Positions 8,218 to 9,167 of a stretch of DNA of 64,000 nt are shown piece after piece. Made by a program: the position numbers and the translations under genes. Within the stretch, counting starts at the first letter, position 1. Every line of letters begins with the position of its first letter. The notes under the pieces were generated by a model. The model made no database searches, had not been told where the DNA came from, and worked only from the letters and a program-made list of their open reading frames with translations. The DNA is from a virus (lineage: Duplodnaviria > Caudoviricetes), in the IMG/VR virus record IMGVR_UViG_3300043447_000710, positions 64,001 through 128,000 of that record, one strand, 5' to 3'.

Positions 8218-8303
8218 CTTTAAAGATTCTATCAGAAAACATGCCGAGAACCCTGTGCTTTCAAGCCAGGGATGAAGGCTAGCCGCAGCTTTTAAGCTGC
8301 CAG

Positions 8304-8474
8304 TCACTTACCATTCTGCTGCTCGATATATCTTCGCACAATTTCAGTGGACACATTGCCGACACTCCCTACAAAATAGCTGGGTGTCCACATACAAGGC
8401 AGCTTCAAAAGTTGGGGAAACTCTTCTCTTAACAGCTTGGCAGATCGTCCTTTAACGCGACGCATGATATAATG
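8304..8474 (-). pseudogene. tnpA: tnpA C-terminal fragment
   Basis: Hand translation HYIMRRVKGRSAKLLREEFPQLLKLPCMWTPSYFVGSVGNVSTEIVRRYIEQQNGK*; HUH motif missing. Confidence 0.88.
8465..8473 (+). promoter_or_regulatory. Extended -10 promoter for the HNH gene
   Basis: TGATATAAT (TGnTATAAT) about 30 nt before ATG 8503. Confidence 0.5.
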
Positions 8475-8502
8475 TGTATAGTCCTTGACCCATTTGCTGA
8501 CA

Positions 8503-9045
8503 ATGTGTTTAGAAGCTTGGAAACCTGTAATGAATTGGGAATTAAGCCACGAAGTTTCAAATTTTGGCAGAGTACGAACTTTAACAAAACAAAAGGTTTT
8601 AAAGTCTCAATTAGTCGAGGGGTATCCTTCGGTTTCACTTTGTAGTAATGGAAAGAAAAAGCGAGCTTACGTGCATCACTTGGTAGCCTTAGCATTTATT
8701 GGATTACCTGCAAGTAAAATTGGAGTTAAAAGCGGAGAGTCCACTATTAATCACAAAGATTTTAATAAGGAAAATAATATACCTGAAAATCTAGAATGGT
8801 TGACTTGTACAGAGAATTATCTTCATGCCTACGCTAACGGCAAAGTTGAGGTAAGAGCAGGAACACAACTTACTCAATCAAAACTAGACCCCTGCAAAGT
8901 CAAAAGAATAAGAGAAAGACTTGCCGCAGGTGAAAGTCCAGCGTTAGTCGCCAGAGATTATGGGGTAGTAAAAGGAACGATTTATGCAATCAAAAAGGGC
9001 ATTACTTGGAATGATGGGCGTTTTGACTCGTCCCCAGAAATTTAA
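8503..9045 (+). CDS. NUMOD4-HNH-HTH homing endonuclease (I-HmuI-like)
   Basis: EAWKPV...EVSNFGRVR (NUMOD4), VHHLVALAF, INHKDFNKENN..ENLEW..EN (HNH), C-terminal HTH. Confidence 0.9.
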   Translation: MCLEAWKPVMNWELSHEVSNFGRVRTLTKQKVLKSQLVEGYPSVSLCSNGKKKRAYVHHLVALAFIGLPASKIGVKSGESTINHKDFNKENNIPENLEWLTCTENYLHAYANGKVEVRAGTQLTQSKLDPCKVKRIRERLAAGESPALVARDYGVVKGTIYAIKKGITWNDGRFDSSPEI

Positions 9046-9140
9046 ACTCTGGTCAGTTAAACAGCATTGCGTAGCGTCTCTTCAGAGCGCGTAGCATTTC
9101 CGTTTAGAATCCTCGCGCATTCATGCCGAGGAGCAGTCAA
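9014..9140 (+). ncRNA. TnpB-type omegaRNA/right end overlapping the HNH 3' end
   Basis: Alternative frame GVLTRPQKFKLWS resembles the TnpB tail GELCAPLKFRLWT at 5247; terminal hairpin and TCAA. Confidence 0.75.
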
Positions 9141-9167
9141 AAGTAGTTAGCGTGGTTTGTATAATTA

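Follow-up and report, generated by a model that had tools for sequence, protein, structure and literature searches.

An IS200/IS605-type element of a phage genome with an I-HmuI-type HNH endonuclease gene in place of tnpB, and its relatives at other loci

We analysed a stretch of 64,000 nucleotides (hereafter, the window) that covers bases 64001–128000 of the 152.6-kb IMG/VR record IMGVR_UViG_3300043447_000710. At positions 8233–9140 the window contains an element with the two ends of an IS200/IS605 transposon and, between them, an intact gene for a NUMOD4-HNH homing endonuclease. TnpB, the nuclease usually encoded there, is now understood as an RNA-guided homing nuclease that keeps IS200/IS605 transposons from loss. 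I-HmuI, the protein that the HNH product resembles, is a nicking HNH homing endonuclease of phage SPO1. We read the element as a non-autonomous IS200/IS605 transposon in which tnpB and most of tnpA were replaced by a self-promoted I-HmuI-type HNH cassette that homes into intact copies of the insertion sequence (IS); we give this reading a probability of about 0.6. That the element is real, recurrent and of the TnpA type, with an HNH gene as cargo and a truncated omegaRNA, is very probable. The homing step taken by itself may be correct, at somewhat less than even odds, judging from the sequence comparisons described below. The finding concerns a family of IS605 shells in which a classical HNH homing endonuclease stands in place of TnpB, with the exchange at one and the same point of the omegaRNA-coding tail in every case.

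Element boundaries and the uninterrupted site

Positions 8233–9140 constitute an exact 908-bp insertion of the IS200/IS605 type with no target duplication. It lies directly 3' of CTAT (8229–8232, + strand), a target-adjacent motif established by the empty-site alignment and also found in front of a TnpB-only sister element. When the 908 bp are removed, the window aligns without gaps to two related phage contigs, L123 and L124, taken from two metagenome assemblies at NCBI, which show synteny with the window and have flanks 92–99% identical to it. The original prediction, made from the sequence alone, had stated that removal restores a clean spacer and had proposed a search for the empty site; both were found. 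We reached the empty site via the sole protein-database homologue of the gene adjoining the left end, followed by a contig look-up; a search of IMG/VR with the flanking phage genes returned no relatives. The uninterrupted site in L123/L124 reads ...CATCTTTAAAGATTTTAG/AAGTAGTTAGCGTAG... (the slash marks the joint), the window site rejoined after removal of 8233–9140 would read ...TTCTAT/AAGTAGTTAG..., and the donor joint expected after TnpA excision is ...GATTCTAT/AAGTAGTT.... Peel-and-paste transposition by a Y1 TnpA, a mechanism summarised in 10.1101/2023.03.14.532601, leaves just this signature: the insertion is exact, lacks a duplication and lies 3' of a short motif.

The left end (8233–8303, + strand) contains two subterminal hairpins, at 8251–8271 and 8285–8300 in the single-stranded DNA fold, and is 86–89% identical to the left end of the TnpB-only element (genome positions 62855–62930). 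The right end (9110–9140, + strand) consists of a hairpin at 9110–9132 followed by the terminal sequence GCAGTCAA, which ends in GTCAA; the last base of the element, 9140, was set by the empty site. It is 85–88% identical to the TnpB-only element's right end, with a compensatory C-G to U-A change in the stem. Imperfect subterminal hairpins on one strand are therefore present at both ends, as in IS200/IS605 elements, which also insert without duplication directly 3' of a target motif. Both ends had been correctly placed by the original prediction, the left one behind CTAT and the right one as a hairpin closing in TCAA. The 20 nucleotides that follow (9141–9160, + strand), which would serve as the guide AAGTAGTTAGCGTGGTTTGT, are ordinary phage intergenic DNA, and L123/L124 have them at the uninterrupted site with a single mismatch.

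An antisense tnpA remnant adjoins the left end (8304–8465, − strand), again in agreement with what had been predicted. It belongs to the YIEQQ-type subfamily, matches positions 69–121 of 121 of the Pfam Y1_Tnp family (E 6e-13) and is 52–53% identical to intact TnpAs by tblastn. The C-terminal 53 codons alone remain of the Y1 (HUH) TnpA coding sequence, and the element is therefore non-autonomous at best.

Two local differences from the related contigs were observed. The bases at the insertion point are TTCTAT in the window (8227–8232) and TTTTAG in L123 (2986–2991), with two of the four adjacent bases differing, and the nearby flanks in this comparison are 92–96% identical; the difference could be a target gain before insertion or a target escape. 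Besides, the gene adjoining the left end (MTTFQ..., 7798–8217, − strand) has some 135 nt extra (7989–8124) with respect to its close relative in L123 (~3094–3097), and its product has 140 aa in the window and 96 aa in L123.

The HNH gene and its cassette

The HNH gene (8530–9045, + strand) is intact and encodes 171 aa with NUMOD4, HNH_3 and a C-terminal helix-turn-helix, as seen in the Pfam domains and the match to I-HmuI. The NUMOD4 domain scored 35.0 bits (cut-off 23.4, E 1.7e-8) and HNH_3 scored 27.9 bits (cut-off 24.8, E 1.8e-6). Together with the two ends and the empty site, these domains bear out the central claim of the original prediction, an IS605 derivative with a NUMOD4-HNH gene in the position and orientation of tnpB. 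The profile of the HNH clade matched I-HmuI (PDB 1U3E) with E 1e-14, and the catalytic H and N columns (NHKD...NN...NLEW) are invariant in the clade. The best Foldseek match of the predicted fold was also 1u3e (E 2e-5), while the C-terminus matched helix-turn-helix domains; the AlphaFold model was built from 7 sequences and has low confidence (predicted local distance difference test, pLDDT, 62), so that it adds weak support only. Neither Pfam nor the profile nor the fold revealed an added RNA-binding module, the only modules seen being I-HmuI-type DNA-binding ones. Judged by these features, the protein is an ordinary I-HmuI-type, protein-guided nuclease. The ratio of nonsynonymous to synonymous differences per site (pN/pS) was 0.19–0.33 between members, with pS saturated, which indicates purifying selection on the HNH genes.

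The closest homologues of the HNH protein stop 1–6 residues past the W of GITW, and the final ~9 residues of the window protein are read-through into the IS tail. The switch from HNH gene to TnpB 3' tail right after GITW, which had been noticed earlier, is thus seen both in the homologue ends and in the tail alignment.

The 5' boundary of the cassette (8465–8489, + strand) is formed by an extended −10-like box, TGATATAAT, and a conserved motif, TATAATGTnnnTAGTnnTTGAC. Both are found upstream of all HNH genes of the clade, and the IS-side sequence to the left of them differs at every locus. We infer that the TGnTATAAT box is the promoter of the HNH cassette. It was not flagged by a sigma-70 scan, as that scan requires a −35 box, and no terminator-like site was found. 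In locus L034 the homology to the intact IS on contig L117 stops before this putative promoter, and the promoter therefore appears to travel with the HNH gene. We also considered that the cassette promoter could be the shell's own tnpB promoter. This idea was rejected, as the L034 shell is 95% identical to L117 and yet the homology ends before the promoter; in L004, moreover, the promoter sits downstream of a tnpB 5' remnant.

Recurrence of the arrangement

Close relatives of the window HNH protein were rare, only six among 5.8 billion clusters, with 53–59% identity to the window protein and 51–78% to each other. All six loci (L004/5, L006/7, L032, L033/34, L035 and L036) share the hybrid architecture. 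The order in each is IS605 left-end hairpins, TGnTATAAT box with the 5' motif, HNH gene, tnpB tail starting from the hairpin H1, and a right-end hairpin ending in TCAA(C); in three of the six loci the left-end hairpins are cut by the contig end. In the hybrids H1 has the stem GGYGC/GCRCC and a loop containing TTGAC.

The huge NUMOD4-HNH family dominated an exhaustive profile search of 1.84 billion representatives, which produced one useful new member. This was its best hit, P0101 (contig L132), whose HNH protein is only 44–47% identical. This out-of-sample locus showed the hybrid architecture again, with a nearly full-length antisense tnpA interrupted by stop codons, then TGGTATAAT, the HNH gene, H1, a long tail like that of the window, and the right end. 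At least eight such hybrids, the window included, therefore share one right junction. The HNH proteins of the seven other loci are 44–78% identical, and the flanks 3' of the right end differ at all eight loci, which are therefore different insertion sites. The original prediction had proposed a search for further copies and had named a unique and decayed arrangement as the outcome that would speak against it. What we found is the same architecture at seven other loci with very divergent HNH genes.

P0151, a relative somewhat further removed (44–49% identical), is encoded by a free-standing gene beside a terminase gene, and no right end was seen at over 100 loci whose HNH homologues are more distant still (≤42% identity). 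PLSDB plasmids and GenBank phages contain only distant homologues of the clade (≤42% identity). Scans of GTDB genomes and of metagenomes contributed a single further clade locus, identical to L032. The right-end pattern had no match in the viral contigs, and the window tail had none in plasmids. The motif TATAATGTnnnTAGTCnTTGAC had a sole match in the viral contigs (L031), inside a large open reading frame, and we discarded it as a chance hit. The searches revealed no closer parent of the window shell, which in architecture comes nearest to L132 and to the TnpB-bearing IS of Nostoc MS1 and T. variabilis.

Parental elements and junctions

Intact TnpAs encoded on contigs L117 and L118 are 89% identical to the L035 remnant of tnpA; these contigs hold ordinary IS605 elements with divergent tnpA and tnpB. 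Set against the parents, every hybrid has its right junction at ...SGVSR/GALTAPLRVRIW..., some 22 codons short of the tnpB stop and immediately 5' of H1.

For the parental side we aligned the last 230 nt of ten tnpB-bearing relatives (alignment A7), which comprise L117 and L118, the intact element of the window itself and seven copies from cyanobacterial plasmids. A sliding window over this alignment identified AGTGGAGTCAGTAGAG (A7 columns 138–153) as the most conserved 16-nt block. The first retained base of the hybrids corresponds to column 153, i.e. to the 3' edge of that block, which is under a double constraint, from the protein as well as from the RNA. Genes of homing endonucleases are typically located in highly conserved sequence, at their own cleavage site or next to it.

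The left junction, on the other hand, differs at every hybrid, always 0–3 nt from the TGnTATAAT box. The junctions form a nested series, running from tnpB codon ~38 in L004 through tnpA residues ~17 in L132, ~48 in L034/35, ~92 in the window, ~110 in L006 and ~118 in L036, to L032, where no tnpA is left (evidence in L004 3806–3919, L132 291–640 and the upstream regions of L034/L035/L006/L036).

The residual omegaRNA

The tnpB 3' tail of the window element, which is the 3' part of the omegaRNA scaffold, occupies 9016–9109 (+ strand) and comprises H1 (9016–9033), H2 (9034–9052) and an extra long-tail hairpin (9057–9107). A TnpB-like alternative frame, GVLTRPQKFKLWS, at 9017–9055 matches GALTAPLRVRIWA of an intact TnpB. 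The long-tail architecture is common to the window element, L132 and the TnpB-bearing IS of Nostoc MS1 and T. variabilis. The RNA fold of the tail had a z-score of −2.1.

RNAalifold applied to the ten parents returned H1, H2 and the right-end hairpin, as well as a 12-bp stem immediately 5' of the junction (A7 columns 114–149). Seven pairs of this stem show double compensatory changes (e.g., CG:5/UA:5 and AU:5/GC:4), and five types of pair occur at one position. The covarying stem lies within tnpB, and none of the eight HNH elements has it. With a covariance model built on the 139 positions of the intact tail, the parents scored 132–146 bits, six other hybrids 28–80 bits and the window element 17 bits, and the alignment shows the 5' stem as deleted in the hybrids. 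The scaffold kept amounts to ~78 nt in the hybrids and ~125 nt in the long-tail shells (the window and L132). The window element thus lacks a complete omegaRNA scaffold across the nuclease 3' end and the right end. The earlier view that the omegaRNA is retained is right only in part. H1, H2, the extra long-tail hairpin and the right-end hairpin are all there, but the 12-bp 5' stem is gone, and the score fell to 17 bits compared to 132–146.

The original prediction had further suggested that this RNA is used in trans by the TnpB encoded at 5247, or else that it forms a new pairing with the HNH protein. The element at 5247 has a different right-end hairpin; the closest relative is the TnpB-only element just left of the window. 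As to the pairing, we found nothing positive in its favour, and the protein looks like an ordinary I-HmuI-type one. An RNA-guided HNH nuclease is unlikely.

Histories of the cassette and the shell

The history of the HNH cassette and that of the surrounding shell disagree in these comparisons. The 79-nt tail of L035 is identical to that of the intact IS on L117 (79/79), and the L033 tail is 97% identical, and the HNH proteins of L033 and L035 are only 65% identical. The HNH protein nearest to that of L035 is the one of L006 (78%), whose tail is 81% identical, while the nearest shells are those of L117 and L033 (97–100%). The left end and tnpA remnant of L034 are 94.6% identical to L117 over 372 nt. 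Such discordance points to HNH homing into other IS copies.

Additional information comes from the tnpA remnants. Two copies of one dead ancestor would give pN close to pS. For the remnants of L034 and L035 we observed pS of 0.62 and pN of 0.04, and for the comparison with the functional tnpA of L117 a pN/pS of ~0.05 (synonymous sites were saturated in most comparisons). With pN far below pS, the remnants derive from recently functional genes and did not drift from one dead ancestor.

Interpretation

The mechanism that we propose is as follows. The HNH protein would nick or cut intact IS copies at the tnpB/omegaRNA block AGTGGAGTCAGTAGAG, and repair of the break would copy the cassette in, so that a tnpB element becomes an HNH element. 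TnpA supplied in trans would then move the composite element. The HNH protein would leave the vacated site uncut, since insertion sites change and the specificity of a protein, being fixed, cannot change with them. The cassette would thus spread in two ways, by homing between IS copies and by transposition of the shell. The 3' fragment of the omegaRNA would owe its retention to the homing site and the right end, both located there, and not to any function still left in the RNA. Homing into IS copies would explain both the fresh shells around old HNH genes and the fixed right junction at a conserved site. According to a 2026 review, protein-guided homing endonucleases cannot do restorative homing for transposons with changing targets (PMC13565253); the proposed mechanism fits this argument, since its target would be the unchanging transposon itself.

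In its strongest form this reading makes the HNH gene a hyperparasite of OMEGA transposons, one that cuts the conserved tnpB/omegaRNA block, converts intact IS605 copies, leaves shells that TnpA can still mobilise, and erodes TnpB in the IS population. We put this forward tentatively, as a possibility somewhat short of an even chance. If the HNH protein does target intact IS copies, the case would be one of nested selfishness, with a homing gene parasitising a transposon inside a phage, and the protein would act as a natural antagonist to TnpB/omegaRNA systems and could supply nickases with specificity for a conserved IS sequence.

Several observations weigh against the replacement of tnpB by a homing cassette as described. 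The loci are only eight, all metagenomic and each single-copy. We found no near-identical copies at different sites among them, and therefore the case for recent transposition of the hybrid itself comes from one empty site only; that site could just as well reflect an intact IS that inserted there and was converted afterwards. None of this phage's TnpAs has ends close to those of the HNH element; its three intact tnpA genes belong to elements with different ends. The mismatches between L034 and L117 do not rise toward the cassette, i.e. a co-conversion gradient was not seen on the left side. The similarity of the shells could come in part from selection for recognition by TnpA. Finally, a variable left junction flush with the −10 box is not predicted by simple homing with flanking homology.

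Among the other explanations, the HNH gene could be a mere passenger acting elsewhere (phage-phage marker exclusion, the cutting of competitor genomes) after one ancient capture, with the shells exchanged by ordinary IS recombination. Free-standing phage HNH genes of the I-HmuI-like family are indeed very common (1776 phage records match), relatives adjoin terminase genes, and a single capture would give one right junction in all eight loci. However, gene conversion of the shell could hardly yield a 79-nt tail identical to that of an intact IS as far as the junction, since there is no homology on the left side of it; the junction also falls at the most conserved block of the IS tail, and the tnpA remnants show the pattern of purifying selection. 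We regard the passenger explanation as unlikely, though not negligible. A one-off fossil, in which an HNH gene by chance inserted into a dead IS, would account for the truncated tnpA, the missing tnpB and a phage region that is a graveyard of IS fragments, but hardly for one junction in eight loci with HNH genes diverged by 22–56%, for intact HNH reading frames and ends, or for shells close to living IS copies. This scarcely credible alternative is excluded by the recurrence.

In two further explanations the empty site is cut, either with the help of the retained RNA or by the HNH protein. The 3' end of the HNH transcript could be trimmed to a short guide RNA with which the TnpB of another element cuts the empty site, so that the hybrid is retained, as is supposed for elements like the palindrome-associated transposable elements (PATE). 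PATE elements with omegaRNAs used in trans have been described (10.1101/2023.03.14.532601), H1, H2 and the right-end hairpin are kept with compensatory changes, and the same phage has several TnpB genes. Still, these TnpB genes have different tails or right-end hairpins, the best-supported parental stem, 5' of the junction, is gone from all eight elements, and the covariance-model score is 17 bits here compared to 132–146 for the parents, so we hold the use in trans to be improbable. The HNH protein itself could also cut the donor joint (restorative homing), by its own specificity or with the residual RNA, the latter being the new HNH-omegaRNA pairing. The gene does have the position and orientation of tnpB, and by sequence its transcript would extend through what is left of the omegaRNA to the flank. 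On the other hand, one protein specificity cannot match 3' flanks that differ at eight loci, the protein has I-HmuI-type DNA-binding modules only and no added RNA-binding domain, and PMC13565253 describes such use as nearly impossible for protein-guided nucleases. This substitution for TnpB is thus very improbable.

Phage context and neighbouring elements

The record carries a large terminase, a ribonucleotide reductase and a helicase, and is therefore a phage. The relatives of its TnpA and IS sequences come from filamentous cyanobacteria (e.g., Nostoc, Planktothrix and Microcoleus); for this reason, the source is most likely a cyanophage, as far as such relationships indicate.

The surrounding 6 kb are crowded with IS200/IS605 material, including two orphan TnpB tails. 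A complete element has tnpA at 6575–7012 (+ strand) and tnpB at 5247–6530 (− strand). An IscB gene (RRXRR and HNH, 443 aa) lies at 3542–4873 (− strand), with its HEARO/omegaRNA directly upstream at 4892–5111 (Rfam, 129.7 bits, E 1.5e-27). Just downstream of iscB there is an orphan TnpB tail with a right end (3393–3518, − strand) and without a tnpB body; it scored 84.5 bits with the full covariance model, and tblastn shows 84% identity with the final 32 residues of the TnpB encoded at 5247. A second C-terminal remnant of TnpB (7120–7349, + strand) reads ...CGFACDRDVNAGINIL... and abuts the left end of the complete IS. Its right-end hairpin has a long loop insertion and ends in GTCAA at 7349.

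The TnpB-only element, whose left and right ends are the closest relatives of those of the HNH element, lies just left of the window, ~9 kb upstream of the HNH element (genome C1:61472–62930, − strand, 413 aa, L002), and follows CTAT. It is adjoined by a further TnpB fragment at C1:63158–63412. Two more complete tnpA/tnpB IS605 elements are found beyond the window, at C1:132304–134147 and C1:138888–140642. This brings the intact tnpA genes of the phage to three and its full-length tnpB/iscB nucleases to at least four.

Another homing-type nuclease beside an IS605 tail was observed on a Cylindrospermopsis plasmid (L128; NZ_CP060823.1, 3096–3653), where the annotation has a GIY-YIG nuclease gene 70 nt downstream of an intact TnpB element's right end.

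Comparison with known systems

A literature search found no paper with both TnpB and NUMOD4 and none describing an HNH-in-IS605 arrangement; queries on IS605 and homing endonucleases returned reviews, IStron work and TnpB papers only.

The non-autonomous IS200/IS605 elements, i.e. the TnpB-only IS1341 type and PATE, resemble the window element in their hairpin ends, in the duplication-free insertion 3' of a short motif, in the absence of a working tnpA with mobilisation in trans, and in a partial omegaRNA region at the right end. The window element differs from them in carrying a protein-guided HNH gene with its own putative promoter, and in an omegaRNA cut at a fixed point and devoid of the 5' stem. 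PATE elements have no protein-coding gene between their ends, whereas here the intact 171-codon HNH gene is present.

With the phage HNH homing endonucleases (I-HmuI of SPO1) and the intronless homing of T4 Seg/Mob, the hybrids share the protein family and the order NUMOD4-HNH-helix-turn-helix, as well as the self-contained phage cassette with its own putative promoter that is inserted beside a highly conserved sequence. However, the HNH hybrid sits in an IS605 transposon and not in a conserved phage gene or an intron, and the host gene, tnpB, was destroyed while the transposon ends were kept.

IStrons, which combine a group I intron with IS200/IS605 or IS607, are likewise chimeras of two selfish elements, with IS605 ends and a conflict or overlap in the omegaRNA region. 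The HNH hybrid, unlike them, has no group I intron, its partner being the homing-endonuclease gene alone; Rfam detected no intron family at E ≤ 1 in window positions 3000–10000, where the only RNA found was the HEARO RNA of the neighbouring IscB.

The KolobokP transposons of eukaryotes encode a His-Me finger homing-type endonuclease (cited in PMC13565253). The likeness consists in a transposon with a beta-beta-alpha-metal nuclease related to protein-guided homing endonucleases. KolobokP elements, however, are eukaryotic and have a DDD/E transposase, and their nuclease was added to the transposon, while in the HNH hybrids it took the place of an RNA-guided one.

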